In this document: one piece after another, positions 147 through 52,872 of the stretch | Layout: the number at the start of each line of letters is the position of its first letter | How positions within the stretch are numbered: the first letter of the stretch is position 1 | Virus record (IMG/VR): IMGVR_UViG_3300006923_000016 | Span: 1 to 64,000 of that record | From: an uncultured virus (IMG/VR IMGVR_UViG_3300006923_000016) | Lineage: Duplodnaviria; Heunggongvirae; Uroviricota; Caudoviricetes | Length of the DNA: 64,000 bases | Direction: 5' to 3' (one strand) | Position numbers and translations under genes: made by a program | Notes under the pieces: generated by a model | Told to the model about the DNA's origin: nothing | Databases searched by the model: none | The model's input: only the letters and a program-made list of their open reading frames with translations

Positions 147-380
147 ATGCTACTAATAAGCTCAGCTCCAGAAGCAGAAGAGAAAGCTTTCGCAAGCTCA
201 GACTATGCACACACGGATGTAGCCGTGGCCGTAGCTGCTGACTCTCGGAAGTTTTATTCGCTCTACATCCACCTCCACGAAAAAGTTCTCTACAGCGTTA
301 CTCCCCGTAAGGTGGGCGATACTATCGTCTTCCGTTGGAGACTACCACCTACGATAAAGGAAAAACACTTTGCAAATTAA
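147..380 (+). CDS. Small hypothetical protein, MLLIS N-terminal family
   Basis: 77 aa ORF filling the gap between tRNA-Val and groES; begins MLLISSAPEA. Confidence 0.6.
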   Translation: MLLISSAPEAEEKAFASSDYAHTDVAVAVAADSRKFYSLYIHLHEKVLYSVTPRKVGDTIVFRWRLPPTIKEKHFAN

Positions 381-657
381 GCCAAAAGGTCCTTACATCC
401 TAGTTCAGCTTGACACTGTCCCCGATCAAACCGCTTCTGGTCTTTACCTAGGCAGCTCAGCCCGTAAGATGAAGCAATGCAAGGGAATTGTTACTGCTAT
501 TGGCACTGCCGTATTTGATGTAGAACTAGGAGACAGAGTAATTCTCACTGTTGACTACGAACCTAGCTTCTGTGTCACCAACGATGAACAAGAAGAATTC
601 GTTATCGTTGACGAAGAAGACGTCTGTGCAATCCTAACAGAAGAAGGGTCAAATTGA
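370..657 (+). CDS. groES: Co-chaperonin GroES (Cpn10)
   Basis: MQIKP-G-YILV...QTASGLYL...GIVTAIG...VELGDRV...IVDEEDVCAIL pattern; TTG start after AAGGA. Confidence 0.88.
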   Translation: MQIKPKGPYILVQLDTVPDQTASGLYLGSSARKMKQCKGIVTAIGTAVFDVELGDRVILTVDYEPSFCVTNDEQEEFVIVDEEDVCAILTEEGSN

Positions 658-917
658 TTTACTTTGCTATTAGGCATAAAACAACCGGACTATTCATGGT
701 TGGTAGCTCTAGATATAGTTCATGGAGTCCCATAGGAAGGACATGGGCTAATCCTTCTTCAGCCAAAGGACACATAACTCGGGTAAGAAATCTCATTCCA
801 GGATTTAAGAAAAGACTAAACAGGGGGGCGATGAAGTGGCAAATTGATCAAGCTAACCTTAACCCCAGTGAATGGGAAATTGTTAAGGTTAAAATGATTG
901 TAGACGACACGGTTTAG
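654..917 (+). CDS. Hypothetical protein
   Basis: 87 aa ORF coupled to the groES stop; FAIRHKTTGLFM start is typical of small phage proteins. Confidence 0.7.
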   Translation: MIYFAIRHKTTGLFMVGSSRYSSWSPIGRTWANPSSAKGHITRVRNLIPGFKKRLNRGAMKWQIDQANLNPSEWEIVKVKMIVDDTV

Positions 918-980
918 TAGTAAGATAGACACGAACCCTGGATAGACCGGAGTTCAGACTTCCCAAAGGTGGAGGACAAC

Positions 981-2072
981 ATGAAGAAATATTCTCTCGG
1001 CGTCGTAATCGGACGCTTTCAGCCCGTACACCAGGGGCACATCGAAAACATACTGGTGCCTGCACTTGAGCAATGCGATAGAGTCCTAGTGACTCTCGGC
1101 TCGTGCCATAAGCCACGAACAATTAAAAATCCTTTCACTGCTATTCAGCGTGAAGGTATGATCCTTGAAGCTCTTCGTAGTCACTATGACTACCCCCAAC
1201 GAGCAGAATTCACCAGCTTGTCGTTCAGGGACGCACGTGACTTCCCTTACGACAACAACAGATGGCGTGCTCAGATCCTGAGATTCGCTCATGAATTTGA
1301 AGACAACGACTCGAAGATTGCTCTCTTCGGAGCAGAGAAGGATCATTCATCCTTCTACCTCAAGTTCTTCCCGCTATGGGCTCTGGTTGAGCCTGAAGGG
1401 CTTGGTAACGGTTACAGTTCGACTGTTATCCGAGAGTACTTCTTCAGCGATTCTTTCAAGATGGATGCTCTTCATGCTCCGGCTGACTTGTTCACGAAGA
1501 ACATGGTCAATCGAGGCCTTCCCTCTTGTAATATCGTAACTCTGAGTAACTGGGTCTTCACCGAGGAAGGTAAAAGACTTAAGACTGAGTACGATCACAT
1601 CAAGAAGTACAAAGCTCAGTTCGAATCCTACCCCTATCCACCCATCTTCCACACCGTAGATAATGTAGTCCTATACAACGGACACATTCTCCTGGTGCAG
1701 CGTGGAGCCATGCCTGGCAAGGGCCTGTGGGCTCTCCCAGGTGGCTTCCTTAACGCCAATGAGTGGGCATTCCAAGGAGCAATGCGTGAGCTTGCCGAAG
1801 AAACAGGGCTCAAGCCCAAGCCCGAATGGTATAACCCCGAACCAAAAACGTTCGATCACCCCGGCCGATCTCTTAGAGGCCGAACGATCACTACAGCTTT
1901 CCTCTGTGTTGTCCCCTCTAGGTTTCCCGCACCCTCTGTTAAGGGAATGGACGACGCCGATCGAGCCTCTTGGATCCCAATGGATAGAGTACTTGGGGAT
2001 TCCCCAGCTTATTCAAACATAATGTTCGAAGATCACATCGATATCATCAGAGAGATGGTGGAGAGGGCGTGA
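981..2072 (+). CDS. nadM: Bifunctional NMN adenylyltransferase / ADP-ribose pyrophosphatase (NadM-Nudix)
   Basis: GRFQPVHQGH (HxGH) motif, KNPFT, SST-IR, C-terminal Nudix box GGFLNANEWAFQGAMRELAEETG, DHPGRSLRGRTIT; ATG 981 follows GGAGGA. Confidence 0.93.
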   Translation: MKKYSLGVVIGRFQPVHQGHIENILVPALEQCDRVLVTLGSCHKPRTIKNPFTAIQREGMILEALRSHYDYPQRAEFTSLSFRDARDFPYDNNRWRAQILRFAHEFEDNDSKIALFGAEKDHSSFYLKFFPLWALVEPEGLGNGYSSTVIREYFFSDSFKMDALHAPADLFTKNMVNRGLPSCNIVTLSNWVFTEEGKRLKTEYDHIKKYKAQFESYPYPPIFHTVDNVVLYNGHILLVQRGAMPGKGLWALPGGFLNANEWAFQGAMRELAEETGLKPKPEWYNPEPKTFDHPGRSLRGRTITTAFLCVVPSRFPAPSVKGMDDADRASWIPMDRVLGDSPAYSNIMFEDHIDIIREMVERA

Positions 2073-2299
2073 TTCTAATAAGCAATGCACCTGAGGCTAG
2101 TCTTCAAGAACTTTGCTTTATAATGCCTCGGTTTTTGCCAAGAAAAAATGAACCCATCTTTCTCGCAGTCTACTTGCCGTGTCAAAAGAGGCCAACAACA
2201 GATGTTGAATGGTTTACTTTCAGCGTCTTAATCTCTAAAAAGTTTTGGAAAGCAGAAGACGTCCCTCATACCCAAGGCGATAGACGCCAAGGAGAATGA
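2069..2299 (+). CDS. Small hypothetical protein, MLLIS N-terminal family
   Basis: 76 aa, GTG start overlapping the nadM stop and stop overlapping the nadV start; begins MILISNAPEA. Confidence 0.65.
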   Translation: MILISNAPEASLQELCFIMPRFLPRKNEPIFLAVYLPCQKRPTTDVEWFTFSVLISKKFWKAEDVPHTQGDRRQGE

Positions 2300-3813
2300 C
2301 AAAAATGTTCATTCATGAAATCCCAATTGCAGTATTATCTGATAGTTACAAGGCAGGGCACCCTCGCCAGTACCCCGACAACATCAAGCAAGCAACAGCC
2401 TACGGAGAGTTCCGTAAGGCTATGTTCGGCAACGATCATCGGATCGTGTTCTTCGGAGGCCGCTACTATACAGAGACATTCCTTAATCGGCAGTGGACGA
2501 TGGAAGATATAGATGCAGCAGCATTGTTCTACTCCACTCACAATGTTCCCTTCACCCCCTATCCCTTTCCAGAAGAACTGTTCAGAAAATTCGTCCGAGA
2601 AAACGATGGTTATTTCCCAGTTAAGGTGGAGATGATTCCAGATGGTACTGTTATCTACCCACACGTGCCTGTGTACCAAATCACCGCGTCTGATGATTAT
2701 TCACGGCTCGTCACTTTCATCGAAACGGTACTTACGATGGTATGGCACCCGACCAGCGTTGCGACTCTCGCGGCCCACACCAGGAATGCGATTGTTTCAT
2801 CGTTTGGACGTAGCGCTGACGAGGAATCGTCCTGGAAGATAGATTCAAGGCTTCATGATTTTGGTTTCCGAGGCACTTCTTCAATCGAAAGTGCAATATT
2901 GGGAGGTATGGGTCACCTACTCAGCTTTACAGGCAGTGACACCATGGCCGCCGCTTACTATGCTCAGATGGCATACAACGATGGGCGACCAGTGGCTATG
3001 TCAATCCCTGCCACAGAACATAGTGTAATGACAAGCTGGCCTGATGAACTCAGTGCCGTGCGAAACATGTTCAAGCGGTTCCCAGGAGGCTTGCTCGCCA
3101 CTGTGGGCGACTCCTATGACTGGAAGGGCTTCCTAGACACAGTCGTTCCCATCATGGCTAAGGAGAAGCCTGAGGACCTCTTCTGGGTAATTAGACCAGA
3201 CTCTGGTGACCCTCTTAAGTGTGTCCTTCAAGGGCTAGAAGCATTGGAGAAGAACTTTGATACTACTATCAACTCAAAGGGTTATAAGGTCATCAACGGA
3301 GCTGGGATCCTTCAAGGTGATGGCCTGGACATATCATCACTCCTCAAAATCCTATATGGAGTGGAGGCTGCTGGCTTCTCTGTCGAAAACGTCGCATTCG
3401 GAATGGGTGGTGGGCTTCTCCAGAAGCATAACCGAGACACGATGGCTTTCGCCACCAAGCTATCCCAAGTGGTACTTGACGACGGCACTATCGTGGACAA
3501 GATGAAGTACCCCAAGACAGACAAAGACAAAGCTTCCATGCCGGGTAGACTCAAGGTCATCACCATGGCTGGTCATCCCGTGACTGTTCCTGAAGAATTC
3601 CATGTCTGGAGTGACTACGCTATTGAGACTAATCTCCTTAGGGTTGTCTACGATCATGGACCAGTAGAGGTTGAGCATCTCACCTTTGATGAAATGCGGG
3701 CAAGTCTTCTCATCCAGTGGGATCGATGCAAAGATGGCTATAATGCCATCCACCCCAGCCTTAAACGGAAGATGGAAACAATCATGGAGGCACACCGTGC
3801 TAACGGAAATTAA
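2296..3813 (+). CDS. nadV: Nicotinamide phosphoribosyltransferase (Nampt)
   Basis: SDSYKAGH, LHDFGFRG, SIPATEHSVMTSW, IRPDSGDP, QGDG, AFGMGGGLLQK-NRDT motifs. Confidence 0.95.
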   Translation: MTKMFIHEIPIAVLSDSYKAGHPRQYPDNIKQATAYGEFRKAMFGNDHRIVFFGGRYYTETFLNRQWTMEDIDAAALFYSTHNVPFTPYPFPEELFRKFVRENDGYFPVKVEMIPDGTVIYPHVPVYQITASDDYSRLVTFIETVLTMVWHPTSVATLAAHTRNAIVSSFGRSADEESSWKIDSRLHDFGFRGTSSIESAILGGMGHLLSFTGSDTMAAAYYAQMAYNDGRPVAMSIPATEHSVMTSWPDELSAVRNMFKRFPGGLLATVGDSYDWKGFLDTVVPIMAKEKPEDLFWVIRPDSGDPLKCVLQGLEALEKNFDTTINSKGYKVINGAGILQGDGLDISSLLKILYGVEAAGFSVENVAFGMGGGLLQKHNRDTMAFATKLSQVVLDDGTIVDKMKYPKTDKDKASMPGRLKVITMAGHPVTVPEEFHVWSDYAIETNLLRVVYDHGPVEVEHLTFDEMRASLLIQWDRCKDGYNAIHPSLKRKMETIMEAHRANGN

Positions 3814-4351
3814 AAGCCTTCTTAGTTCTAATCATAAGCTTAGTGCAACCATCTCTGGTGGTGGTATTGGTTTTTTCTCTAAACTATTAGTTCATGGAGG
3901 AGGGAGTGCTCTTCTTGTAAGAGGCCACATCCCCTACGGAACATCAACACTACACACAGCAGCTGCACCATGGCAACACGGTCAAGGGGCAGTCAGCCAA
4001 AGGACGGCTGAGAACGTTACAATTAATCTAGAACAAACATCTCATTGGCTTGATCCCAACGAGAGAGTTAATCATGTTTCCCTTTGTTGCACAGCAACTA
4101 TGAAATCAGAAAGAGAACGTCAGGGAAGAGAGCATCGAGCTTGGATTTCCCTACGTGGAGACAAGAAGCCTAACAAAAGCCTTAAGATCTCCCTATCTCA
4201 CTATCTCACTCGTGAAGAGCAAGAAGATTTGCTTTCAGAACTACTCCTAAAATTACTCGCTGAGTATGTTGGAGTTAGTTCAGAAGGTAATGCTCTTGTC
4301 GAAGCGAAGAAGCAAGACAGCAACATCGTAGAACATAAGTCTCTAGAATAG
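3797..4351 (+). CDS. CinA/PncC-like (NMN deamidase fold) protein
   Basis: SGGG...LL-HGGGS-LL-RG-IPY, AVSQRTA, CTATM...GREHRAWI resemble the CinA C-terminal fold; follows nadV; GTG 3797 after GGAGG. Confidence 0.55.
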   Translation: MLTEIKSLLSSNHKLSATISGGGIGFFSKLLVHGGGSALLVRGHIPYGTSTLHTAAAPWQHGQGAVSQRTAENVTINLEQTSHWLDPNERVNHVSLCCTATMKSERERQGREHRAWISLRGDKKPNKSLKISLSHYLTREEQEDLLSELLLKLLAEYVGVSSEGNALVEAKKQDSNIVEHKSLE

Positions 4352-4366
4352 GCATCAGCGTAAACA

Positions 4367-5266
4367 ATGGAACAAAAATATCTTGATCTTTTAGAAAACA
4401 TTTTAGAGAACGGAACAGATAAAGGTGATCGAACGGGGACTGGCACTCGAAGCTTATTCGGGCGTCAGCTCCGTTTTGATCTGTCGGAAGGGTTCCCACT
4501 CCTTACCACCAAGAAGATGTTCATGCGTGGGATTAAAGAGGAGCTGCTTTGGATTCTAAGTGGCTCAACAGACAATAGAAAGCTACAAGAAAAGAATGTA
4601 AACATCTGGAATGAATGGGCTACTGAAGAACAGTGTGCTAAGTTCGCTAGACAAGAAGGAGACCTAGGTCCAGTCTATGGACACCAGTGGCGTAACTTTG
4701 GAGCTAACTGGGACCCTACGGGTGATCAACCAGAAAAAGAATGGTATGACTACAAAGCTCAGCGCTGGGTTAATCCAGTCTACATGTCAGATGGCATGGA
4801 TCAGATAAGCAATGCCATTGATCTCATCAAAAACAATCCCAACTCTAGACGTATCATCGTCAACGGTTGGAATCCAAGTGAAGCAACGCAGGTCGCGCTA
4901 CCTCCTTGTCATACCCTTTTCCAATTCTATGTCATTGAGGGTAAGCTTTCAGGCCAGCTCTACCAGCGGAGTGGAGATGTGTTCCTTGGGGTTCCGTTCA
5001 ACATCGCATCCTACGCTCTTCTGCTTCACCTCACCGCTCAAGCGACAAACCTGGAAGCTGGTGACTTTGTCCATACGTTCGGTGACGTTCACATCTATAA
5101 CAACCACTTCAAGCAAGTAGAAGAGCAGCTCAGTCGCACACCGCTAGAACTACCTACACTCTGGCTTAATCCAGAGGTAGATGACATCTTTAACTTCACT
5201 AGTGAAGACATTAAGATTGTTAACTACAATTCTTATAAGTCAATCAAAGCACCAGTAGCAGTATGA
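4367..5266 (+). CDS. thyA: Thymidylate synthase
   Basis: [58 protein letters not shown]. Confidence 0.98.
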
Positions 5267-5330
5267 GATTTCAAGGTCAGTTGGTGAGTAGCCTCACTGG
5301 TCCCCTTCCTACTGGTATCACTTATTGCAC

Positions 5331-6281
5331 TTATCCGTTAGGTAAGTTGTCGATAATGTAACCCATCTCAACTAGAGTCCCTGCTTCAGGAATTATATCG
5401 AAGAAAATCGTGTTAGTAGTCTCATCGTAATGCCAATATGGGAACTCTAGCGCATCTTCAAAAACGATAATACTATCTGGGACTGGTACAAACTCAAGCT
5501 CCCATGACTCATAAGGTTCTAACTGAACAGTAGCTTCGGCTACGCCAGGTGACCAATCAGTATCCATAATATCGATCATGACACCACCGAAGTGGTCTAC
5601 TACTTCTACATACCCAGCGTTGTCGTTGGGATTAGTAATTGCTGCTGCAAATGTAGACCCCTCAGGGCGGAGTCCCTCATACCAGGAAATCCATTCATTT
5701 AAAGGCATTGAAGACTGATCGTACTCGTCGCTAACAAAAACGGTTAGCAGGGTAACATCATCGCGCATCCATTCCCAAGAAGCCGGATTATTCTCAATGT
5801 ATTCGTAAGCAGAATCTCGTCCCGACTCCCACTGCCCTTGCATAATGGAGTTGTACATATCAAGAGCTTCGTCGATACCATCACCTGGTACAAGAGGGAA
5901 CTGGAAGGGTTCGTTAGCCGCATTGGACGGGGTAGCACTAATCATCATTAGTCGCCAACCGTGCGGCGGCAAAGCATTTATCATTGCTTCAATACCTGCT
6001 AGGACTCTTCCGGCATCGTTGTTCATAGAGCCAGAGAAGTCCAACACCCATAAAATATCAGTGCCATTAGAAGTAGATGGTTGGATAAAATGCTCAACCC
6101 AGACATCACCTTGAGGATCACCATTGGGAATCTCAACTTCAACCTCAACAATTACCTTAACAGGGACCTCAACAGGCACTTCAATATATTCAGTTTCCCC
6201 ACCATAAATAGCATAATCACTACAACCAATTAATATAAGAGGGATAAGGATTGTAAACAGTTTATTTAATAGACGCTTCAT
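5331..6281 (-). CDS. vWA-domain lipoprotein
   Basis: Signal peptide with lipobox LIG-C, MIDAS motif DILWVLDFSGSM, FVSDEYD; ATG 6281 after GAGGAGG. Confidence 0.75.
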   Translation of the reverse strand: MKRLLNKLFTILIPLILIGCSDYAIYGGETEYIEVPVEVPVKVIVEVEVEIPNGDPQGDVWVEHFIQPSTSNGTDILWVLDFSGSMNNDAGRVLAGIEAMINALPPHGWRLMMISATPSNAANEPFQFPLVPGDGIDEALDMYNSIMQGQWESGRDSAYEYIENNPASWEWMRDDVTLLTVFVSDEYDQSSMPLNEWISWYEGLRPEGSTFAAAITNPNDNAGYVEVVDHFGGVMIDIMDTDWSPGVAEATVQLEPYESWELEFVPVPDSIIVFEDALEFPYWHYDETTNTIFFDIIPEAGTLVEMGYIIDNLPNG

Positions 6282-7119
6282 CTGACTGTGCCTCCTCGAG
6301 TATCTTTTCAAGCTCAATAATTTTTAGGACCTGACTTAAAAAGTCTCTAATTCTATGTGCTGGTTCAGCAATAGAAATCTCAGACCAATCACTACCATTG
6401 GTACTTACAATAGCGATAAGCATCCCAATTATTTCACCGTCCTTGATTACAGGACTACCTGATGAGCCTTGAGCAGCAGGTAAGCTTAAGAAATAATCAC
6501 CGGTAAGAGGATCAACAAAGGAGAAGCTACCTTCCTTTTTAATGGGAAAGATACCAAAGGGTGCCTGAATACTGATGATTCTGTCATCAAATCGAGGTGT
6601 ATAGTTATCGCTGATTGGGTATGCTGGAAGACTAGTTTCAACCTCAAAGATACATAGATCAGGGTTAAGGTTAAACCAAATAACCTTACCTTCAGAGGTT
6701 GTGTCTAGCACAGTACGAATCTCAATAAACTCATGAGCTAGCTTAGTCAAGGGATTTACACATACATGCCCAGCGGTAAGCATGAGAGTCTTGCCGTTAG
6801 GCTGTAGCTTAACAGCCGTAGCTGTGCCACTGCCTCTAAGTGGAAGCTCTCCTGGTATAGTGTTACTTCTTACACGAACTAATGCCGTGCTTAAAGCTAA
6901 AGGGTTGCTTGTAGCTTGGGTTAGTGTTAGAGTATCTTCTACTTTAGGGGCCATCGCCTGGACTAAGCTTTCATCTGCAATGAAGGCTAAGTCCATCATA
7001 GGGACCAAAAGCAGTGCTACCAACACGCTTAAGAATTTCCTTTTCAATTTCGTCTCCTTTTCAGGGGCGGTACCCCTTATACTTAGCATATCATGGTCAA
7101 CCAAGAACTTACCAGCCAA
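6262..7119 (-). CDS. Trypsin-like serine protease with N-terminal membrane anchor or signal
   Basis: Catalytic triad motifs LTAGHVC, DLCI, GSSGSPV; hydrophobic N-terminal segment; true start may be downstream. Confidence 0.85.
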   Translation of the reverse strand: MAGKFLVDHDMLSIRGTAPEKETKLKRKFLSVLVALLLVPMMDLAFIADESLVQAMAPKVEDTLTLTQATSNPLALSTALVRVRSNTIPGELPLRGSGTATAVKLQPNGKTLMLTAGHVCVNPLTKLAHEFIEIRTVLDTTSEGKVIWFNLNPDLCIFEVETSLPAYPISDNYTPRFDDRIISIQAPFGIFPIKKEGSFSFVDPLTGDYFLSLPAAQGSSGSPVIKDGEIIGMLIAIVSTNGSDWSEISIAEPAHRIRDFLSQVLKIIELEKILEEAQSDEASIK

Positions 7120-7626
7120 CTATCTTTTTGGGACAGTATCCACGATGGGTATTACATTGCTGTAACCAGCGGAGGCTTTGATCCCCTACATGTAGGGCAC
7201 CTACGGTCTATCATCAATATGAAGCTCGCAGTTAGAGACTATCTTGTCCTTAAAAAAAAGAAAATCGACAAAATAGATAGGCCTATTCTTTCTGTTGTCA
7301 TTGTCAACGGACCCAATTTCTTAGCTCAGAAAAAGGGATATGAATTCATGCCTCTTGTAGAACGCATGGAAATCATCAAGAACCTCCAAGGTGTAGATTA
7401 TGTAGTCCCTTGGGATCAAGTAGGTGATGACTCTACTGTTATCAACGCTCTCTCCATTATTAAGCCTCACTTCTTTTGCAAGGGTGGAGACCGCACCAAA
7501 GAATCCGGACTAGCTGAACAAGCAGTGTGTGATAGTTTGGAGTGTGAAATCATATATAATGTAGGAGGCGGGAAGATTCAAAGCTCTTCCTGGTTAGTAG
7601 ATGCTGCTGATAAGCACAAAACTTAG
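7093..7626 (+). CDS. Cytidylyltransferase-family nucleotidyltransferase (HldC/RfaE2/TagD-like)
   Basis: SGGFDPLHVGH, KKG-FMPL-ER-EI, GVDYV, KGGDR, GGGKIQSSS. Confidence 0.88.
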   Translation: MVNQELTSQLSFWDSIHDGYYIAVTSGGFDPLHVGHLRSIINMKLAVRDYLVLKKKKIDKIDRPILSVVIVNGPNFLAQKKGYEFMPLVERMEIIKNLQGVDYVVPWDQVGDDSTVINALSIIKPHFFCKGGDRTKESGLAEQAVCDSLECEIIYNVGGGKIQSSSWLVDAADKHKT

Positions 7627-7807
7627 CTATCAAACCCTACCAAATGAACCACTAATCGCCTGGACTATTCGCCTAGATAAAGACCTTGTTCTTTTATTTG
7701 CTCGCCTTCATAAGGGGAGATGGTATGGTGAAAAAATCAGGAACTATCATATATGGAATAGAAAGCGGTCTAGACAACCAAGCTTGCTCCATGGCGACAA
7801 GGCCTAG
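7601..7807 (+). CDS. Small hypothetical protein, MLLIS N-terminal family
   Basis: 68 aa, begins MLLIST; start overlaps the upstream gene by 26 nt. Confidence 0.45.
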   Translation: MLLISTKLSYQTLPNEPLIAWTIRLDKDLVLLFARLHKGRWYGEKIRNYHIWNRKRSRQPSLLHGDKA

Positions 7808-7866
7808 GCCTAAAAGTGAATATCCTTCATGGATTAAACGCCTTCCCCTTGCTCATAGGAAAAGAT

Positions 7867-8103
7867 ATGCTGTTGATATCCCAAGAGATGAGAATCTCTA
7901 AGCCTTGGTACACACGAATCTCTTTCATCCTAGGGGTTGATGATTATTGGATAGATACTTGGGAAGTCAATGCACTCTTTGCCTTCCTAGATATCACCGT
8001 AAGATCAGAGTGTGAAGACTCCCCCATAGATGTGTTCACTCTCGTACTCGAAGAGGACCACCCAATTCATGCAAAAAATAAAATTAGTAAAGTCAACCGA
8101 TAA
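7867..8103 (+). CDS. Small hypothetical protein, MLLIS N-terminal family
   Basis: In-frame ATG at 7867 (MLLISQ) within track ORF 7816..8103, preceded by AGGA. Confidence 0.55.
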   Translation: MLLISQEMRISKPWYTRISFILGVDDYWIDTWEVNALFAFLDITVRSECEDSPIDVFTLVLEEDHPIHAKNKISKVNR

Positions 8104-8695
8104 GATTCTGTCTACTCCGACAGAAATTGTTACCGACATAAGTACTCAAGTCATTCCCTACATTGCCACCATGAGGACCATCATGAGACAAAACAGTGGA
8201 GTAGCTATTGCTGCTAACCAAGTAGGATTGCCTTATCGATTCTTCCTTGACAGGGGTGAAATTTATATCAACCCTACAATTGAAGTAATTGATGCTACAG
8301 AAATCCAAGGACAAGAAGGATGTCTCTCCTTCCCTGGAGGCGCCTGGCTTTGTAAAAGATTCACAGCCATAGCCTTAACCTATGAGACAACCAAAGGGAA
8401 AGAGAAAATCATTACGGTTCGCCTTCCTGATATAGTTAAAACTAGAGCAGATCAAGCTACTGTCTCTAAATTACTCTCTTTCCAACATGAGGTAGACCAT
8501 TTAAATGGCATCCTCTTAACAAATCATGGAGAAAAAATTAAGCGCACCTTTGGTGAGCCTGAAGAGGAGCCTATCTCTTTGGTAGACGCTCGAAAACTTC
8601 CCGTGGTATCCTTGGCTCAGCTACAGAGGCTAATGGTAAGAGATAAAAAGCTTGCTGCACAAGCACAAGCAGCAGCAGCAGACAAAGACGAGTAA
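8069..8695 (+). CDS. def: Peptide deformylase
   Basis: GVAIAANQVG, EGCLS and QHEVDHLNG motifs. Confidence 0.93.
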   Translation: MQKIKLVKSTDKILSTPTEIVTDISTQVIPYIATMRTIMRQNSGVAIAANQVGLPYRFFLDRGEIYINPTIEVIDATEIQGQEGCLSFPGGAWLCKRFTAIALTYETTKGKEKIITVRLPDIVKTRADQATVSKLLSFQHEVDHLNGILLTNHGEKIKRTFGEPEEEPISLVDARKLPVVSLAQLQRLMVRDKKLAAQAQAAAADKDE

Positions 8696-8701
8696 TAACA
8701 T

Positions 8702-8775
8702 CCCCGTATAGCTTAGCGGCTTAAAGCGCTTGCTCGACACGCAAGAGATCGGTGGTTTAGATCCACCTATGGGGA
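8702..8775 (+). tRNA. Atypical or degenerate tRNA-Val(GAC)
   Basis: Acceptor CCCCGTA/TATGGGG, D arm near-identical to tRNA-Val(TAC), anticodon stem CTTGC/GCAAG with loop TC-GAC-AC, T stem GGTGG/CCACC; but C33, T loop TTTAGAT and no encoded CCA. Confidence 0.72.
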
Positions 8776-8784
8776 ACATAAACA

Positions 8785-8961
8785 ATGCTTGTCATTTATC
8801 TAGTTTTAGTTACACTACTCGTTGCAGTAAGCGGTATTACGATTTGGCTTCGTGAAGATACAACCGAAGAGGAAATCTTTTGGACCCAATTACTCTATTG
8901 GCAGACCATACTTTTGATGGTGTTGGCTATAGCATTAGCTATCGTGATATTGCTAGCCTAA
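8785..8961 (+). CDS. Small two-TM membrane protein (58 aa, not in ORF track)
   Basis: Manual translation MLVIYLVLVTLLVAVSGITIWLREDTTEEEIFWTQLLYWQTILLMVLAIALAIVILLA. Confidence 0.65.
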   Translation: MLVIYLVLVTLLVAVSGITIWLREDTTEEEIFWTQLLYWQTILLMVLAIALAIVILLA

Positions 8962-8977
8962 ACCTAAAAGGTATAAT

Positions 8978-9310
8978 ATGGATGATAAAGAAGAACTAGG
9001 TCCGAAGATACACAGTAGAAGAGCCCCTTCGGGTATGCGAATCTTCACTGTCTGTCGACAAGCGGACGAAACAGGCGTTAGCGGTGAAGGAATCATCGCT
9101 GAAGGAGTAGAGTGGGGAGACGGTAGTGTAAGCCTTAGATGGTTGACACCGTGGCCCAAAGGAAGCATCGTCTATTGGCATACAATGCAAGACTTTCTTT
9201 CCGTTCACATCCTCCCTCACATGTCTAATGGAACTATCATTACCTTTGCCGACGGCGAACAGGTAGTGTATGGAACTCCACCTAAAGAAGAAGTTCCTCC
9301 GGAAGAATAA
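8978..9310 (+). CDS. Hypothetical phage protein
   Basis: R--DETGVSGEG-IAEGVEW-DG-V-LRW pattern, which I recall from phage hypotheticals. Confidence 0.75.
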   Translation: MDDKEELGPKIHSRRAPSGMRIFTVCRQADETGVSGEGIIAEGVEWGDGSVSLRWLTPWPKGSIVYWHTMQDFLSVHILPHMSNGTIITFADGEQVVYGTPPKEEVPPEE

Positions 9311-9627
9311 TGTTCCTAGTCTCAGCTCCAATGCCTCAGCGATCACCTAGAACAATCTTTAGGCCTATCATCGTTGATCTAAACTGGCTAAGAGCAAGGG
9401 TAGGAGACAATACTCCTTGGGTTAACGCCTCAACTAGCTACAGATGGAAAATCTTGGAGATTGATACAGGGGAAACCCAGGTTGATTTCCTTGACATTAT
9501 TTTGTTAGCTTTTGAAATAGGTGCAGAGTTAAAGAACTGTACCTTAGAAATCGATGAAACCACAGAGACATTGGTCCTTGGAATTCACCGTCCTCCTATT
9601 CCCTGGCGTCCAGTCAGACATAAGTAG
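9310..9627 (+). CDS. Hypothetical protein, MLLIS-like N-terminus (MFLVS)
   Basis: 105 aa; TAATG coupling with the upstream stop. Confidence 0.65.
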   Translation: MFLVSAPMPQRSPRTIFRPIIVDLNWLRARVGDNTPWVNASTSYRWKILEIDTGETQVDFLDIILLAFEIGAELKNCTLEIDETTETLVLGIHRPPIPWRPVRHK

Positions 9628-9654
9628 CTTTGCCCAAAGCAGAAAGAAGTTATC

Positions 9655-9975
9655 ATGACTATAAAGTTTAACCATCGTAACGTCGCTGGTGGTTACATCA
9701 CTATCGCATTCAACGAAACAGGCTCTGATACAGTTGAATATGGAGTTGCCTTCTGTTCTCCAGAAGACCATTCCAATTTCCGACGAGCTAAGGGTCGTAT
9801 GATTGCAACTAATCGCCTTGAATCCCGCAAGCGTATTGGAATCATTCCTATTCCAGAAGACACTGACCTGATTGTTGAATCCATCATTCAAGACATCGAG
9901 TCAGGCAATTATCAAACTCCTGCCTATAGGGAAGGTGAAGACCTAGCTCCAAAGTGGTTCTTCGGTACATTTTAA
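9655..9975 (+). CDS. Hypothetical phage protein
   Basis: 106 aa; GVAFCSPED-F-RAKGR-IA-RL pattern. Confidence 0.75.
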   Translation: MTIKFNHRNVAGGYITIAFNETGSDTVEYGVAFCSPEDHSNFRRAKGRMIATNRLESRKRIGIIPIPEDTDLIVESIIQDIESGNYQTPAYREGEDLAPKWFFGTF

Positions 9976-9977
9976 GA

Positions 9978-10054
9978 GGCCGCCTAGCCCAACTGGCAGA
10001 GGCAACGTTTTCAAACAACGTACAGTCCGAGTTCGAACCTCGGGGCGGCTACCA
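9978..10054 (+). tRNA. tRNA-Leu(CAA) with short variable loop
   Basis: Acceptor GGCCGCC/GGCGGCT, anticodon stem ACGTT/AACGT with loop TT-CAA-AC, T arm CCGAG-TTCGAAC-CTCGG, 3' ACCA. Confidence 0.9.
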
Positions 10055-10078
10055 TTCTTTTAACTAGAGGTAATAGCC

Positions 10079-10888
10079 ATGACCCGCATCGCCGTCTTCG
10101 GTGATGTCCACGGACATCTGCCAGTACTAGAAGTACTGTTTGACCGAGTAAATTCAAAGTACAAGCCTGATCAATGGTATAGCTGTGGTGATCTCTGTGA
10201 TAGAGGTCCAGACACTCCTGGCGTGGTTCAGTTCTGCATCGACAATAAGATCGAAGCAGTCTTAGGTAACCACGATGAGTGGCTACTGTCCGCCATCCGT
10301 AATGGCTTCAATGATCATATGCTTACAAGCACATGGTTGTATCCCTCTAATGGTGGACGTGAAACCGTAACCCAATACGGAGGGAACATCGTCATAGGCG
10401 GTAACGCCTGGGGTGGCCTTACTTATGGGGTCCATGACTTCAAGGTCCCCTCATCACATGAAGAGTACCTCTTCACCAGACCCACAGTCATTGAGACTGA
10501 GTATGGGTATGTTCTTCACGGAGGTATTGGTCCACAGCATGTCAAGCAAGCAGCCAATCAGATAAGAATGAAGCTTCGCAACCAGGGGCAGATCATTGAT
10601 AGACCAGAGGCTATGAAACTTGTTACTCCGTTTGATTGTGAAGAAGACACTATCAGATGGTTTAACCCAGGAAGGAACGCAGCCTACAAGGCTGTACACT
10701 ACTGGCACTTCGATAAGCCTCAGATTGTTGGCCACATTGGGGTCGACAAGCCAGTAATCAGTGACAATCATATTGCCCTAGACACAGGCTGCTCCTGGGA
10801 TGATGGAGCACTCACTGCCATAATTCTGCCCGAACGTAAGTTCGTGACAGTAACCAAGGAAGAAATCTATGGAAACCCCACAGCATAA
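10079..10888 (+). CDS. Calcineurin-like metallophosphoesterase (Ser/Thr protein phosphatase / ApaH family)
   Basis: GDVHG, GDLCDRG, GNHD, HGG, VGH, LDTG motifs. Confidence 0.92.
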   Translation: MTRIAVFGDVHGHLPVLEVLFDRVNSKYKPDQWYSCGDLCDRGPDTPGVVQFCIDNKIEAVLGNHDEWLLSAIRNGFNDHMLTSTWLYPSNGGRETVTQYGGNIVIGGNAWGGLTYGVHDFKVPSSHEEYLFTRPTVIETEYGYVLHGGIGPQHVKQAANQIRMKLRNQGQIIDRPEAMKLVTPFDCEEDTIRWFNPGRNAAYKAVHYWHFDKPQIVGHIGVDKPVISDNHIALDTGCSWDDGALTAIILPERKFVTVTKEEIYGNPTA

Positions 10889-12074
10889 TATCCTTGGTAG
10901 CCAAGGAATAGATACTTATCCTCCCTATAAAGATACTATTCCACCCCTGATACGGGGAACCGCCAGTTTCGTTAAAGAGGCTGGCGGTTTCTTGTATCTA
11001 GTGGGAGGCTGCGTACGTGACCTACTATGGGACAAGTCTCCCTATGACTGGGACTGTGAAGCCTTTGGCCTAACCGAAGATCAGCTTGAGCTTGTCCTTA
11101 AGAACGTCGCCGCTTACTACCTTGGCAACATCAAGAAGCTCCAACGAGTAGGAAAGCTCTTTCCCGTATGGAAGCTAAGTGCCATGGACATTGCCCTTCC
11201 ACGTAAGGAGCGCAAGATTGCTGCTGGACATACTGGCTTTGACATTGAAGTAGATCCTTTCATGTCTCTAAGAAGCGCAGCTGAACGCAGAGACCTAACG
11301 GTCAATGCTATCTACCTTGATCCTCTCACAGGTGAAATACATGACCCAGTTGGTGGGAGACAAGATCTCTTCAACCATCTGGCTAGGCCTGTGTCTCCTA
11401 GGTTTAAAGAAGACCCTCTTCGAGTCATGAGAGCAGCTCAGTTCTGCTCTAGGTTTAGCCTACTCCCAACACAAGACCTAATTGGATACTCTATTGAGCT
11501 TCAAGAAGAATTTGATTCTCTTTCTATAGAACGTATCCATACCGAATGGGACAAGCTCCTACAACAGGGAGCACACCCATCCTATGGACTTCTTTTTCTA
11601 CAGAAATGTGGGTGGTCTAAGTTCTTCTGGAAGGGTAAGGTAAGCTATCAGCCTCCTAACCCATTCCACACTGCTAGAGATCATCTAGCTATGCTCTATG
11701 GGTCGGCTAACTCAGTCAATGTACCGTTCATTACTGCACGTACTTCAGATCTAAAGTTCATAACAGCACTAAGTAGTGCCTATTCAGCCCTTGAGGTTGG
11801 TGAGTATGACTGCAAGTTTGCTATAGCCCTTAGGCTTTGTTCTAAAGCCATAGACAACGTCTCTCTTCTGAAATGTTGGGCTATAGCCAAGGAACAAAAC
11901 ATTTCCGTATGGCTAGAGATGCTACATGAAGAAAAGATCTGGCGATCCTCTCACCCACCCAAGACCAACGGGACAGTTCTTGTGGACATGGGTTTCAAAG
12001 GGTCAGCAATTAAAAAAGAACTAGATAGACTCTATGTTCAGCAAATGGAGGCCCTCGATGATGTGTCAATGTGA
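10869..12074 (+). CDS. cca: tRNA nucleotidyltransferase (class II CCA-adding enzyme)
   Basis: YLVGGCVRD, DWD, ALPRKERK..GHTGF loop, RRDLTVNA, EDPLRVMRA, ERI--EW-K. Confidence 0.9.
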   Translation: METPQHNILGSQGIDTYPPYKDTIPPLIRGTASFVKEAGGFLYLVGGCVRDLLWDKSPYDWDCEAFGLTEDQLELVLKNVAAYYLGNIKKLQRVGKLFPVWKLSAMDIALPRKERKIAAGHTGFDIEVDPFMSLRSAAERRDLTVNAIYLDPLTGEIHDPVGGRQDLFNHLARPVSPRFKEDPLRVMRAAQFCSRFSLLPTQDLIGYSIELQEEFDSLSIERIHTEWDKLLQQGAHPSYGLLFLQKCGWSKFFWKGKVSYQPPNPFHTARDHLAMLYGSANSVNVPFITARTSDLKFITALSSAYSALEVGEYDCKFAIALRLCSKAIDNVSLLKCWAIAKEQNISVWLEMLHEEKIWRSSHPPKTNGTVLVDMGFKGSAIKKELDRLYVQQMEALDDVSM

Positions 12075-12267
12075 CTGTCTAACTTGTCGTGATGATATCC
12101 TATGGCTTCAACGAGCCGTTCGTCGCCTTGACGAAAGAATTTCAAATCTTATAGATAACACCTCTTTTACTCAAATTCCCAAAGGTGTACAGGCTGCTGC
12201 TGTTGAAGCACCAGATATCGGAGTAAAGCATGTGGACCCGTTCAGCATCCCCAACAAAGAATCCTGA
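12058..12267 (+). CDS. Hypothetical protein
   Basis: Short ORF with CxCxxC start and a coiled segment. Confidence 0.5.
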   Translation: MMCQCDCLTCRDDILWLQRAVRRLDERISNLIDNTSFTQIPKGVQAAAVEAPDIGVKHVDPFSIPNKES

Positions 12268-13072: not shown

Positions 13073-13739
13073 GAAGCCTAACCTTCCTGAAGGAATGGAG
13101 TTGGTTCCGGCAGATGGTTTTACTATTCCCATACGAAAACATCTTGATGCAATTGATGACATCGAGTATCTCCTAGCAGGTCCAGGTTTAACTAGCGATG
13201 TCTATGACATTAGTGCCCTTCCAAACACAGGCAAGATGTATTTTCTATTCACCAAAGACGTGGATAAAGTAGTAACATACTTTAATGATCTTGATGAGTT
13301 CACAGCCGGTAAGACACGAGATATCTTTAACGCATTTTTCGCTTGCGATGCTTATGTTTTCGGAGTCTTGGACCCCAGTACGAAAATTCCTCAAGGCTTT
13401 AGGCAAGAGAATCTTAGACCAACAAGCGCTGACTGCCTCGCAAGATTCACCAAGGTTGATGACGTCGAGCAACTCATGGTCCTCAAGCCAATCACCATCC
13501 CCACAACTGTAGGGTGGTCAAACCTAGTCTTAAGTAAAGACTATCTTAAGCTATTCTTTATGTCATTTATTCAAATGACGATCAAAAGCTTAGCAAGGAT
13601 GGGTTATGCCTTGGATGAAAAACTGTTAAGGGACATCTTCACCTATAGATGTTCTCTTCAGTATGTAGAACCAACCCCCAGGATGTGGCAAGCATTCCTT
13701 AAAGAATTTCCAGTAGAAAGGGTAACTCAAATTTCATGA
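13041..13739 (+). CDS. Hypothetical protein
   Basis: 232 aa ORF coupled to neighbours. Confidence 0.75.
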   Translation: MTKDSNSSEPKKPNLPEGMELVPADGFTIPIRKHLDAIDDIEYLLAGPGLTSDVYDISALPNTGKMYFLFTKDVDKVVTYFNDLDEFTAGKTRDIFNAFFACDAYVFGVLDPSTKIPQGFRQENLRPTSADCLARFTKVDDVEQLMVLKPITIPTTVGWSNLVLSKDYLKLFFMSFIQMTIKSLARMGYALDEKLLRDIFTYRCSLQYVEPTPRMWQAFLKEFPVERVTQIS

Positions 13740-17575: not shown

Positions 17576-17577
17576 TT

Positions 17578-17805: not shown

Positions 17806-17807
17806 GC

Positions 17808-17972: not shown

Positions 17973-17985
17973 ACTCTCTATACAT

Positions 17986-19105: not shown

Positions 19106-19112
19106 GAAAGCC

Positions 19113-37436: not shown

Positions 37437-37438
37437 AG

Positions 37439-47568: not shown

Positions 47569-48276
47569 ATGTTGGTATCAGAAACCGACCTCGCCCTCTT
47601 CAGGGAATGCCCTGCAGGGTATGAAAAATATAAAATGGGTAAGCCTAATAGACAATTGGGGAGCTTTTCGGCGGGCATTATCCTTGAAACTCCAGTCCAA
47701 GCAGTCACAAGATGGCTCTGGGCTAGCCAACTGCGCACTGGTTTCCAGTCAACCCTGCGCGCTACTAAGCATAAGTGGGGACAACTAGTTACACAATGGG
47801 GTACAGAGTGTGGACTAGCACACCGTCAAACGAGAGATTACCTGACATTACACATGTCCGCTCTCATTGCCTATCACCACTTCTACCTCACATCAGGATG
47901 TGTACCACTGTCAGTGGGGAATCCTACTCGGGTGAAGGTGGGAAGGCACACACTCATAACTCTACCCCAAGCAGTAGTCGCCTCAGGCGACACACCCTTA
48001 TTGCTTAACACTAGCTGTGATTCTTCTAACAGGGATACCTCGAATAACTTCGTCTACAGGGCACGGTTGCACGCTGTGGTTCATTTATCAAAACGACCTA
48101 TGGCAATGCTCAGCCATAGATTTGCAGGAAGACTGGAGTCTGCAGGATTTCGACACAGCCATATGTGTAGTGAGGGGTTTCTTAACAACCTTGAGCTTAC
48201 ATTGGACTTAATGGAAGCAGGTTTCAATGCACCTTCTGTTATATGTAAAAGTAAGTGCCCCTGTAAGGAGAGCTAA
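47569..48276 (+). CDS. Hypothetical protein, possibly an inactive PD-(D/E)XK fold
   Basis: S-TDL--FRECP--Y start and C-terminal Cys cluster; catalytic acids not evident. Confidence 0.6.
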   Translation: MLVSETDLALFRECPAGYEKYKMGKPNRQLGSFSAGIILETPVQAVTRWLWASQLRTGFQSTLRATKHKWGQLVTQWGTECGLAHRQTRDYLTLHMSALIAYHHFYLTSGCVPLSVGNPTRVKVGRHTLITLPQAVVASGDTPLLLNTSCDSSNRDTSNNFVYRARLHAVVHLSKRPMAMLSHRFAGRLESAGFRHSHMCSEGFLNNLELTLDLMEAGFNAPSVICKSKCPCKES

Positions 48277-48491: not shown

Positions 48492-48741
48492 CTCTGTTAT
48501 TACCACCCTTGTCTATAGGTGTTTGGACTGTGGCATGATGCTTAAGCCTAAGCGTATCATTGGTCAAGGCCAGGTAAGCTCTATCAAGCGTACAATCCAT
48601 GGACTTCTGCCCGAAGACGCTACCGATGAGCCAGGCTCTAAGCGTGTTGATTTGGGTGTGCTGACTGGGACGAGGAAGAAGCCTCTAAGAGTCCCTGGAG
48701 GCCTCACAGGAGCTAACATGGGCTTCCCCAGCGCCAAGTAA
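48382..48741 (+). CDS. Zn-ribbon hypothetical protein
   Basis: CKKC...CLDCG. Confidence 0.65.
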   Translation: MPIEQMISICECKKCKSTLFESVEAAIIQQNENGTYNSVITTLVYRCLDCGMMLKPKRIIGQGQVSSIKRTIHGLLPEDATDEPGSKRVDLGVLTGTRKKPLRVPGGLTGANMGFPSAK

Positions 48742-48986
48742 TGATCTTAGTCTCACAGTCACCCCTAGCGAATAAGGCAAACCTAGTCTCCCACAAGTGG
48801 GAACGCTACATAGGGGGTAAAATAGCGCTTTGTATTGGGACAAATCCTTTGGGGATTCTCTTTAATGAGCCCTTCACTAGTCAGGATATGATTGACAGTT
48901 TCGTCAAGATGTCCAAGGTAAAGCTAAGGCCTCAAGCCACCATTATCCACCCTAAACAGTGGAAACTCTTCACCAGTGGCCTCTAA
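48741..48986 (+). CDS. Small hypothetical protein, MLLIS-like N-terminus (MILVS)
   Basis: 81 aa, TAATG coupling. Confidence 0.6.
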   Translation: MILVSQSPLANKANLVSHKWERYIGGKIALCIGTNPLGILFNEPFTSQDMIDSFVKMSKVKLRPQATIIHPKQWKLFTSGL

Positions 48987-49563
48987 AAGACACAAGAAAG
49001 TAGGGGAACTCCTCGATTCTATACCCCTTACTGCCAACATGCAGAAGAAGGAAGAGGTAAGCGTTAAAGAGCTAGTCCCCAGCTTTCCAGGCGGTAGAAA
49101 GAAGATTGATTGGTATGTTAAAGAGTTAAAGTTAGTAATTGAAGTTCATGGTCGACAACATTATGAACCCGTAGCATTCGGTAATAGAGGAGACGCCAAG
49201 TTTCAATATGGGAAGCAAGTAAGACATGATATTGATAAGCAAAACGCCCTCCTCGGAGCAGGGTATCTTTACCTCGAAATACCGTACTGGATTAAACTCA
49301 CCAAAGATTGGTTCCTTCAGGCGATCACAGAGCTGGAACACGAATCACGTACCAAGCCTGATGTTGGGCCTACAGCTAAGCCTGTTCGACAACCTAGAGT
49401 TGGTAATAAACTCCTATCTAGGGGGTTTGAACCTCCCTCAAAGCACAATCTTCTGTCAGGAAATCGTCTCAGATCTAGAGGTTTTCCGAAGAAAGATACT
49501 CCTAAAGACACCTGGAAGCAGGATTTAGAAAAAATAAAGGATACGCATGATCTCAATGACTGA
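48976..49563 (+). CDS. DUF559/Vsr-like endonuclease
   Basis: IDWY---LKLVIEVHGRQHY, D--K---L--G--YLEIPYW. Confidence 0.78.
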   Translation: MASKRHKKVGELLDSIPLTANMQKKEEVSVKELVPSFPGGRKKIDWYVKELKLVIEVHGRQHYEPVAFGNRGDAKFQYGKQVRHDIDKQNALLGAGYLYLEIPYWIKLTKDWFLQAITELEHESRTKPDVGPTAKPVRQPRVGNKLLSRGFEPPSKHNLLSGNRLRSRGFPKKDTPKDTWKQDLEKIKDTHDLND

Positions 49564-50206
49564 TGCGGAAGCGACAGAAACACTTCCAGAAGAAATGGAC
49601 ATCATGTCCTTTGAAGCTGGTGGGTTACCACCAGAACTACTCAAGGCTCTCAGTGAGAGCGGAAAAGATAATAGAATCATTGGCCTATTTGGCGATATTG
49701 GACCAGAGATCTCATCTGCTGTGTTAAGTGCACTTGTTTCACTACAGATGGAGAGTCCTGACGAAGAAATAACTATCTTCATTAATTCAGGTGGCGGTAA
49801 TGTTACCGACGCTCTTGCTATATGGGATGCAATTGAAGCCTGTACTTGCCCTATCGTCATGGTTGGCGTTGGAAGAGTCATGAGCGCAGCTGCTTTCCTT
49901 ATGTATGCAGGAGATAAGGGACGGCGCTACCTTTCCCCCAACACACTGGTTATGGCTCACCAAGTAAGTTATGGAGCTATGGGAACATACTCTGAAATGA
50001 AGGTTCAGCACCGTGCAGCAAGCATGCTCAAGGAAAGAATGATTGACCTCATGGCAAAGAGAGCTAACCTTAAGGGTTCTATTGTCTCTCGTAGGAAGAA
50101 GCTCGCAAAGGTTTGGGAAGATGCACATGACCAGTATTTCTGGCCCGAAGAGGGCATCGAGGCACTAGGCCTAGCAGATAATATCGGCCTGCCTCACTCG
50201 GAATAA
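49547..50206 (+). CDS. clpP: ClpP-family protease
   Basis: IFINSGGG-V, AIWDAI, G-VMSAA (catalytic Ser), M-HQ, DQYF---E----GLAD. Confidence 0.9.
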   Translation: MISMTDAEATETLPEEMDIMSFEAGGLPPELLKALSESGKDNRIIGLFGDIGPEISSAVLSALVSLQMESPDEEITIFINSGGGNVTDALAIWDAIEACTCPIVMVGVGRVMSAAAFLMYAGDKGRRYLSPNTLVMAHQVSYGAMGTYSEMKVQHRAASMLKERMIDLMAKRANLKGSIVSRRKKLAKVWEDAHDQYFWPEEGIEALGLADNIGLPHSE

Positions 50207-51840: not shown

Positions 51841-52059
51841 ATGATAATGCTGAGCAACAAGACAGAATTTAGACCAGTAGTAGCGTTAGTCTGGGAGATG
51901 GGTGTGCAGCACGGTGCTGAAAACCCTGTCTCAGCAGCTATGTGGGTCATACCTACCAAGCTCGAATGCTCCTACCATTCATGGATGCCTAGCCCTCCTG
52001 AGAAGGTTCATCTATGCTGGGGAAATAAGGATCTTCACGAGGGAATGTGCTCTTTATAA
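51841..52059 (+). CDS. Small protein, tandem MLLIS-like array member 1 (MIMLS)
   Basis: 72 aa, first of five consecutive small ORFs. Confidence 0.6.
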   Translation: MIMLSNKTEFRPVVALVWEMGVQHGAENPVSAAMWVIPTKLECSYHSWMPSPPEKVHLCWGNKDLHEGMCSL

Positions 52060-52241
52060 GCCACAATCCTACCTACAGGATAATACCCCTAGAGGAGTGG
52101 AGTCGGTGGAGCTTCAAGGCTATGGGACTCGAACGCTACCTCTACTTTTACGACACTATCTACAAACGCCATCCTCTTATCTCTCATCTTTACCTTACAT
52201 TGAGAGCCCGTGCTGGTTACGATCTTCTAGGTCGCTGGTAG
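52047..52241 (+). CDS. Small protein, array member 2 (MLFIS)
   Basis: 64 aa, GTG after GAGGGA. Confidence 0.6.
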   Translation: MLFISHNPTYRIIPLEEWSRWSFKAMGLERYLYFYDTIYKRHPLISHLYLTLRARAGYDLLGRW

Positions 52242-52266
52242 AGTCTGATACACTATAAGGACATGT

Positions 52267-52452
52267 ATGTTATTCATGACTTTAGATAAACCAACCTCTC
52301 CTTCAATCAGGCTACGATGGGGCCGCTTTGATTGGTGGGAGAACGATAAGATTGTATGGCACATTCCTTTGAATGAACATGGAGTCATATGCTTTAAAAA
52401 CATCCATCTCAACTACGCAAAATATCGGTTGGTACTGGCCATATATAAATGA
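52267..52452 (+). CDS. Small protein, array member 3 (MLFMT)
   Basis: 61 aa, AAGGA RBS. Confidence 0.6.
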   Translation: MLFMTLDKPTSPSIRLRWGRFDWWENDKIVWHIPLNEHGVICFKNIHLNYAKYRLVLAIYK

Positions 52453-52673
52453 TCTTACTGACTTGTGGGCGACCAATTTATACCCCGGCAAAGCTGGGTA
52501 AATTCACCTTTTACCCTGGCACAGCTAAGCCTCGTGAGTTCATCCACCGCTTTAGATTCAAGACAGATGTGTGCTTCGAGATCAATTCCTGTAAAGACAT
52601 TGTCTATGATCAACACATCTTCACTTTTACCCGGCATTTGCATCTACGCTGCGTGAATGATCTTCCTATCTAA
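52449..52673 (+). CDS. Small protein, array member 4 (MILLT)
   Basis: 74 aa, ATGA coupling. Confidence 0.65.
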   Translation: MILLTCGRPIYTPAKLGKFTFYPGTAKPREFIHRFRFKTDVCFEINSCKDIVYDQHIFTFTRHLHLRCVNDLPI

Positions 52674-52872
52674 CACACTTAAGCGCGCGCCGACGTTAGT
52701 CGGACGCTACACTTGGGCCTCAGGCTCATCTAGAGTTACGACTCACCACTTCAAGGCTCATGAGCACTGCATCTGCTGGGATATAGAGACTGAGGTTCAG
52801 ATCGCAATAACCCTGGGTGCTCTTGTGCTTACTAAGCATCTTCACTTCTACCTAGGAGCCATCAATGATTGA
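52657..52872 (+). CDS. Small protein, array member 5 (MIFLS)
   Basis: 71 aa; paralogous to member 4. Confidence 0.65.
   Translation: MIFLSNTLKRAPTLVGRYTWASGSSRVTTHHFKAHEHCICWDIETEVQIAITLGALVLTKHLHFYLGAIND

Follow-up and report, generated by a model that had tools for sequence, protein, structure and literature searches.

The first 64,000 nucleotides of IMG/VR record IMGVR_UViG_3300006923_000016, from an uncultured virus of the Caudoviricetes, are the stretch of DNA analyzed here (the window). Small open reading frames (ORFs) slotted between the replication and nucleotide-metabolism genes of its + strand begin in the same way, with methionine, three hydrophobic residues and a serine or threonine, and the question raised by this locus is why such proteins should share a beginning and what that beginning does. 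A protein-level motif is common to these otherwise unrelated small proteins, and we infer that it is read by one common machine. The explanation tentatively favored is that the motif may act as an N-terminal recognition tag on fast-evolving accessory proteins, much as the capsid-targeting sequence of T4 does.

A shared start on small open frames

The preliminary description listed 12 such ORFs, named here by their first position in the window. All 12 are present at those starts with the first five residues described and encode proteins of 61-105 amino acids (aa), ORFs 2069 and 52047 having GTG and not ATG as start codon. The expression that defined them, ^M[ILFY][LFM][ILVM][ST], was used to scan every ATG, GTG and TTG start of the 78,017-bp contig of which the 64-kb window is the first part. 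It finds 24 start codons, 22 of them on the + strand of 1-53,400, and all 22 of the latter open frames of 57-128 codons. As a base rate, frames of at least 57 codons follow 11% of +1-frame starts and 19% of the starts that lie outside large genes. The residue classes of this expression were fitted to the data, and the scan was therefore repeated with the broader M-[ILVFMYW]x3-[ST], which has 28 starts on the same strand and interval, 24 of them open for at least 54 codons (base rate 8-21%).

When three hydrophobic residues and S/T are all in place, every one of the 10 starts outside large genes is followed by a long frame, and so are 11 of the 14 in the +1 frame. Partial classes, with zero to two hydrophobic residues or without S/T, are each long in 10-30% of cases, so that the link of the motif to long frames needs the whole motif and is all-or-none. 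Counted over the first starts of ORFs of at least 50 aa, the broader motif heads none of the 44 large + strand genes, 11 of the 53 small free-standing ORFs and 8 of the 39 nested ORFs, and the difference between large genes and small ORFs has a Fisher P of 8e-4. The link to long frames lies far above both the base rate and the expectation from codon shuffles (see below). Position 8 is often proline (5 of 11 free-standing members, 4 of 9 nested ones, background 5.5%), and the excess of proline in the nested set (P = 9e-4) concerns a feature that played no part in the selection of the set. At all 21 sites codon 8 begins with A or C.

The codons at position 5 differ between members as had been claimed, with AGC, TCA, TCC and TCT for serine and ACT for threonine. 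Across the tag sites the serine codon may be AGC or TCN, variation at third codon positions is free and replacements are conservative (I/L/V/F). There is no upstream conservation, the mean identity outside the motif being 8.3 of 30 positions against about 7.6 expected, and no DNA repeats were found among the tag sites. Because of the switching between serine codon families, the free third positions, the conservative replacements and the unconserved flanks, the constraint is placed on the peptide and not on the DNA.

Homologues point the same way. The homologue search covered ORFs 9310, 48741 and 147 only among the free-standing members, and both families in which homologues were found, those of ORFs 9310 and 48741, keep the tag. 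A homologue of ORF 9310 at 86% identity begins MFLVSATQPQ and one at 39% identity begins MLLISANTPF, and a homologue of ORF 48741 at 59% identity begins MILVSQTPLA, with nine of the first 10 residues identical. A search of the ESM Atlas gave no usable match for ORF 9310. Among the bodies of the tag ORFs only those of ORFs 52449 and 52657 align (27% over 62 aa), and these are tandem paralogues; the profiles of ORFs 9310 and 48741 do not align to each other (hhalign probability 0.5%). These comparisons bear out the proposal that the tag is conserved as a peptide on small proteins that otherwise have no relation to one another, and they show that about the first eight residues are kept by peptide-level selection on bodies that are unrelated and fast-evolving.

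All the tag ORFs are on the + strand. ORF 147 (147-380, 77 aa, MLLISSAPEA) follows the tRNA-Val gene, and ORF 2069 (2069-2299, 76 aa, MILISNAPEA) lies between the NUDIX/cytidylyltransferase and NAMPT genes; both are free-standing, and they share 8 of their first 10 residues as described. Upstream of the window, in the + orientation of the window, G001 161471 has the start MILLSNAPSK on a frame of 32 aa, which resembles the SNAPEA start of ORF 2069, and G001 152867 has the tag-like start (MN)MLLVSNNQPS on a frame of 80 aa. ORF 7601 (7601-7807, 68 aa, MLLISTKLSY) overlaps its upstream gene by 26 nt at its 5' end, ORF 7867 (7867-8103, 78 aa, MLLISQEMRI) starts at an internal ATG of the frame 7816-8103, and ORF 18857 (18857-19105, 82 aa, MYLISSTRFS) shares its first 38 nt with the end of the PhoH gene. 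ORFs 7601 and 18857 are both absent from the protein collection searched. ORFs 9310 (9310-9627, 105 aa, MFLVSAPMPQ) and 48741 (48741-48986, 81 aa, MILVSQSPLA) are free-standing, and a tandem run of five tag ORFs of 61-74 aa, with starts at 51841, 52047, 52267, 52449 and 52657, occupies 51841-52872.

Most free-standing members abut or overlap the stop codon of the gene upstream. The small overlaps are as described, with 4 nt for ORFs 2069 and 52449, 1 nt for ORFs 9310 and 48741 and none for ORFs 51841 and 52267; ORFs 52047 and 52657 overlap their upstream neighbors by 13 and 17 nt. The gene callers of the source data called ORFs 147, 7867, 9310, 48741, 51841, 52267, 52449 and 52657, with ORF 7867 called by one pipeline, and no Pfam or PHROG family matches any tag ORF. 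Two other explanations of the array at 51.8-52.9 kb were rejected. Stop-codon recoding or a single broken long gene does not fit the three-frame translation, in which every frame has mixed TAA, TAG and TGA codons, and structured RNA or tRNA-like units do not fit the Rfam result, which has tRNAs only, or the shortness of the repeats in the array.

The scan adds members beyond the earlier list, at 2642, 2855, 13285, 32857, 33325, 35042 and 48017. ORF 48017 (48017-48211, 64 aa, GTG, MILLTGIPRI) lies within the 235-aa open frame 47569-48276. This frame also contains a 77-aa GTG ORF at 47775-48008; it has a codon score of -0.004, a coding signal in no frame and no Pfam match, and its status as a gene is doubtful.

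ORF 147 varies between strains. The contig that holds the window and the 189,645-bp full-length record differ at 5 of 78,017 positions, and four of the differences (positions 244, 297, 300 and 361) fall within ORF 147. All four are non-synonymous (S33Y, V50F, T51A and E71G); the fifth alters a third codon position of the RNR gene. Of the four changes, only E71G is found in a third strain. The pattern, taken here as arms-race behavior, is as expected of diversifying selection or of a small recombination patch. A diversity-generating retroelement was rejected, since there is no second copy of 141-400 anywhere in the genome. The effector set had been called hypervariable, and this is borne out for at least one member, ORF 147, which diverges between near-identical strains.

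Tag-led frames nested in larger genes

A second set of frames with the same start lies inside larger genes, each in the +1 frame of the gene around it. The NAMPT gene has three, at 2642-2842 (MVLLS), 2855-3028 (MILVS) and 3257-3505 (MILLS), and the DnaE gene has two, at 32857-33153 (MLLIS) and 33325-33609 (MLLVTKTP). The others are 13285-13512 (75 aa, MILMSSQP) in gene 13041-13739, 16245-16631 (128 aa, MILVSASI) in gene 15971-16708, 35042-35254 (70 aa, TTG, MLLITEIP) in the phosphoesterase gene 34996-36141 and 49226-49528 (100 aa, MILISKTP) in the endonuclease-like gene 48976-49563; all are on the + strand. In the segment 2296-4351 the +1 frame of the NAMPT gene is open over most of its length as five successive ORFs, at 2315, 2642, 2855, 3257 and 3671, and the last runs for 226 aa, through the gap before ThyA.

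The preliminary description had set the frames at 3257, 16245 and 49226 aside as shadows of the codon bias of the genome, and this caveat does not hold. In synonymous shuffles within genes 0.07 long +1 ORFs with the strict motif are expected and 7 are observed (maximum 1 in 300 shuffles). Shuffles that preserve the next base give 8.8 motif starts, 0.75 of them long, against 14 and 10 observed (maximum 4 long in 500). Local patches of T/C-ending codons were also rejected as the cause of the open +1 frames: third-position composition within the nested ORFs equals the gene average, and T-ending codons show no general clustering, with 112 runs of four NNT codons against 98.8 +/- 11.7 expected.

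Two controls have no comparable excess. On the coding strand of the late modules of the same genome, long frames follow 2 of 29 motif starts in one case and 0 of 9 in the other, while on the + strand of the window they follow 12 of the 15 in the +1 frame and 10 of the 11 outside it. In 35 unrelated AT-rich phage loci, chosen as matches to the alignment of the endonuclease-like protein, 24 of 434 motif starts are long. That protein (48976-49563) has invariant E56, H62, D85 and K88 in the alignment and homologues at 76%, 50% and 49% identity, and its distant copies (30-49%) are in these 35 loci of unrelated AT-rich viral contigs; it looks like a mobile nuclease gene.

The nested frames are held open beyond what the codon usage and protein of the enclosing gene lead one to expect. 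Two features of their starts lean mildly to translation. SD-like (Shine-Dalgarno-like) sites precede 5 of the 12 nested starts, against a background of 21%, and folding of the start regions is weaker. Over 1-20,000, contigs from four marine runs covered the sequence sparsely, and their variants were too few for a test of the reading frame. The nested set, as a set of putative coding frames, most likely belongs with the free-standing tag ORFs, and it is regarded as real but unexplained. It is possible, if doubtful, that about nine tagged +1 frames in essential enzymes (NAMPT, DnaE, the phosphoesterase, the endonuclease and others) are kept and translated, which would make this systematic overprinting, with a second layer of tagged peptides produced by the early region and with the tag, not the body, as the functional unit.

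Readings of the motif

As a recognition tag, the motif would be explained as follows. The early, replication and nucleotide-metabolism region would hold at least 11 small accessory genes that are specific to the lineage and whose products start with M-hydrophobic-L/F-hydrophobic-S/T, often followed by x-x-P. This start may be a short linear recognition motif that lies outside the folded core and hands different small proteins to one common machine of the phage or of the host. In the AlphaFold model of ORF 9310 residues 1-32 are unstructured and lie outside the modeled beta-alpha core, in a model of low confidence (mean predicted local distance difference test score, pLDDT, 54). The closest working model would be the T4 capsid-targeting sequence (CTS), by which internal proteins with various anti-defence roles are brought into the prohead. 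The main alternative for what reads the tag would be regulated proteolysis by way of an N-terminal degron, because the phage has its own ClpP; the gene, at 49547-50206, lies inside the region of clustered tag ORFs.

Several observations weigh against this reading. Codon scores of the 12 ORFs are weakly positive, at 0.03-0.15, where the median of real genes is 0.196 and the +1 frame has -0.13. ORF 147 has no homologue beyond its own 90% cluster, and the mean pLDDT of the ORF 9310 model is low. The tag genes sit among early and middle-type genes and not beside the head genes. In the head module no prohead protease or scaffold was recognized, and specifically no T4-type protease; the two ORFs of 610 and 439 aa that separate the portal from the major head protein are without a family match. 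The T4 prohead protease cleaves at L/I-x-E, and no site of this type is conserved behind the tag within the first 12 residues, inspected by eye, where only ORFs 147 and 2069 have A-P-E. The neighboring 40 kb of the same genome, also with early-type genes, has nine motif starts of which two are long, and thus at most two further long members; since the excess is missing there, the set is local. As for the nested frames, their products resemble ordinary off-frame translation, with an isoelectric point of 9.4-11.9 in 9 of 12 and a composition rich in S, R, L and T. The enclosing genes have no drop in codon score where the nested frames overlap them, and no source pipeline called a nested frame, which counts against gene status.

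The chief rival to a recognition tag, though an unlikely one, is a role in translation. The first codons, or a nascent M-hydrophobic peptide, would aid initiation or early elongation in ORFs that lack a good SD site and are coupled to the upstream gene, and the motif would mark frames that are truly translated and not a destination. The motif is found precisely where the start codon is, and it goes with openness of the frame, which only the ribosome reads. SD-like sites at or below -5 kcal/mol precede 36% of the free-standing members and 62% of the core genes, and most tag ORFs overlap or abut an upstream stop. Start regions fold weakly, at -6.1 and -7.2 kcal/mol, the value for +1 starts as a whole being -9.2. 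The identity of codons 3-5 can greatly alter protein yield according to one study (PMC6920384), and such a dependence would fit this role. In the same study (PMC6920384), however, hydrophobicity is uncorrelated with yield and the favored motifs have K/N and then Y/I. A ramp of this kind also leaves the conserved S/T at position 5 and the proline at position 8 unaccounted for, and the core genes of the phage begin with an ordinary M-K/T/S/E.

Common descent is improbable. The members would then be diverged paralogues of one small gene, recognizable by the N-terminus alone, and the tandem paralogues 52449 and 52657, the shared residues of ORFs 147 and 2069 and the clustering of members in three parts of the region are all consistent with this. 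For the other pairs, however, nothing aligns beyond the tag, and duplication cannot have produced the members nested in conserved enzymes. If the members were nonetheless paralogues, survival of the N-terminus alone would still point to a function of the tag.

A signal in DNA or RNA that incidentally reads as M, three hydrophobic residues and S, for example a promoter, protein-binding site or recombination cassette, is disfavored as very improbable. The 15-mer RTGNTNNTNATAAGC has five occurrences against 0.05 expected, one of them inside a gene, and all copies are on one strand. However, it covers five sites only and has no copy in the other 125 kb of the genome. Such a signal does not fit the coding of serine by two unrelated codon families, the free third positions and the unconserved flanks; the homologues preserve the peptide through conservative replacements, and open frames behind the motif are not explicable by a DNA site. 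Least probable is chance or a shadow of codon bias, largely refuted for the free-standing set. Runs of T-ending codons would then yield ATG-NTN-NTN-NTN when read in the +1 frame, and the small ORFs would be noise. All nested cases are indeed in the +1 frame, in which NAT-GNT-NNT-NNT gives the motif; start codons overall carry the motif at a density close to background (33 strict matches in the other 112 kb of the genome), and the finding was selected from very many windows. However, the long frames observed far exceed those in both kinds of shuffle, the late modules and the 35 unrelated loci lack the effect, and free-standing members have conserved homologues.

Genome setting and comparison with known systems

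The 78,017-bp contig matches, in reverse, positions 71,277-149,293 of a 189,645-bp viral record that is rated complete. The phage is known from marine metagenomes alone. Judged by its genes, the source of the window is a marine myovirus of about 190 kb, with identified terminase, portal, major head protein, tail sheath and baseplate wedge. INPHARED has no near match to the genome, DnaE there being at most 40% identical. Searches for the DNA of relatives gave nothing but the same genome in IMG/VR, nothing but the same contig in the JGI metagenomes, and no match in the GTDB genomes. A related contig of roughly 142 kb encodes one protein (P0002) at 76% identity and another (P0023) that belongs in the 90% cluster of 8978-9310.

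The + strand of 1-53,400 is the replication and nucleotide-metabolism region, with genes for Cpn10, NUDIX/cytidylyltransferase, NAMPT, ThyA, PDF, PhoH, RecA, DnaE, class II RNR, primase, ClpP, RusA and a MoxR-like ATPase with a vWA/metallopeptidase partner. Replication in this phage relies on DnaE and RecA, so that it is not T4-like. Three tRNA genes (Val-TAC, Val-GAC and Leu-CAA) and a cut one occupy the segments 1-140, 8701-8777 and 9978-10054, the cut tRNA at 1-53 and the tRNA-Val directly before ORF 147 at 65-140; ORFs 147 and 9310 directly adjoin tRNA genes. The vWA/metallopeptidase gene (14887-16089) overlaps the next ORF (15971-16708, 245 aa) by 119 nt, and the true start of the latter may lie further downstream. 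The replication region also encodes a SpoVG-like protein (22983-23345) and a Whirly-domain protein (21425-21910), of a single-strand DNA binding family best known in plants. From 53.4 kb on, the genes are on the - strand and include a TubZ-like tubulin and a sugar-modification cluster. The TubZ/FtsZ-like tubulin gene (54451-55608, -), here in a myovirus of the DnaE/RecA type, adjoins a gene for an IscA-like Fe-S protein, and the GDP-mannose dehydratase/aminotransferase/glycosyltransferase cluster lies nearby at 55.6-64.8 kb.

To our knowledge, the T-even phages are in practice the only phages known to put short N-terminal address tags on a diverse set of accessory proteins. The tagged proteins in these phages are injected and act against host defences, and the tags have been used to load foreign cargo into capsids. 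The CTS of T4 is polar or acidic and ends in a protease site. The tag described here differs from it in sequence, has no conserved cleavage site and occurs in a phage in which no T4-type prohead protease is recognized. The likeness is in the arrangement. In one report (PMC3012670), the T-even CTS is the only conserved part of diverse injected proteins that counter host defences. Like that of IPI, IPII, IPIII and their polymorphic relatives (PMC3012670), the tag is a short conserved N-terminal peptide on small, unrelated, fast-evolving accessory proteins, and its genes, like the CTS genes described in that report, lie in variable regions, here in some cases beside tRNA genes. As with the T-even internal proteins, at least one member, ORF 147, diverges between near-identical strains. 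If the recognition tag is real, it would be a second, unrelated tag, in an uncultured marine myovirus, and would give a simple sequence handle for the host-interaction proteins of this phage, of which one candidate (ORF 147) is already diversified at the strain level. It could also offer a new loading or turnover signal.

As a putatively exposed hydrophobic stretch directly after the methionine, independent of the fold, the tag would also resemble N-terminal degrons, both the N-motifs of ClpXP and the hydrophobic N-termini read by Lon and ClpAP. Known N-terminal degron motifs include basic residues and are looser than the tag, and, unlike in degron systems, no adaptor or unfoldase gene is seen in the window.

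The nested frames compare with overprinted viral genes such as Rz1 of lambda, which lies inside Rz in the +1 frame. Like these, they are +1 frames open beyond expectation, and the composition of their products is skewed in the way that is typical when proteins are newly overprinted. Unlike in known overprinting, there are about nine such frames in 41 kb of coding sequence, with one shared tag, within enzymes such as NAMPT and DnaE. If they are real, they would amount to unusually dense gene birth by overprinting in a large double-stranded DNA phage.

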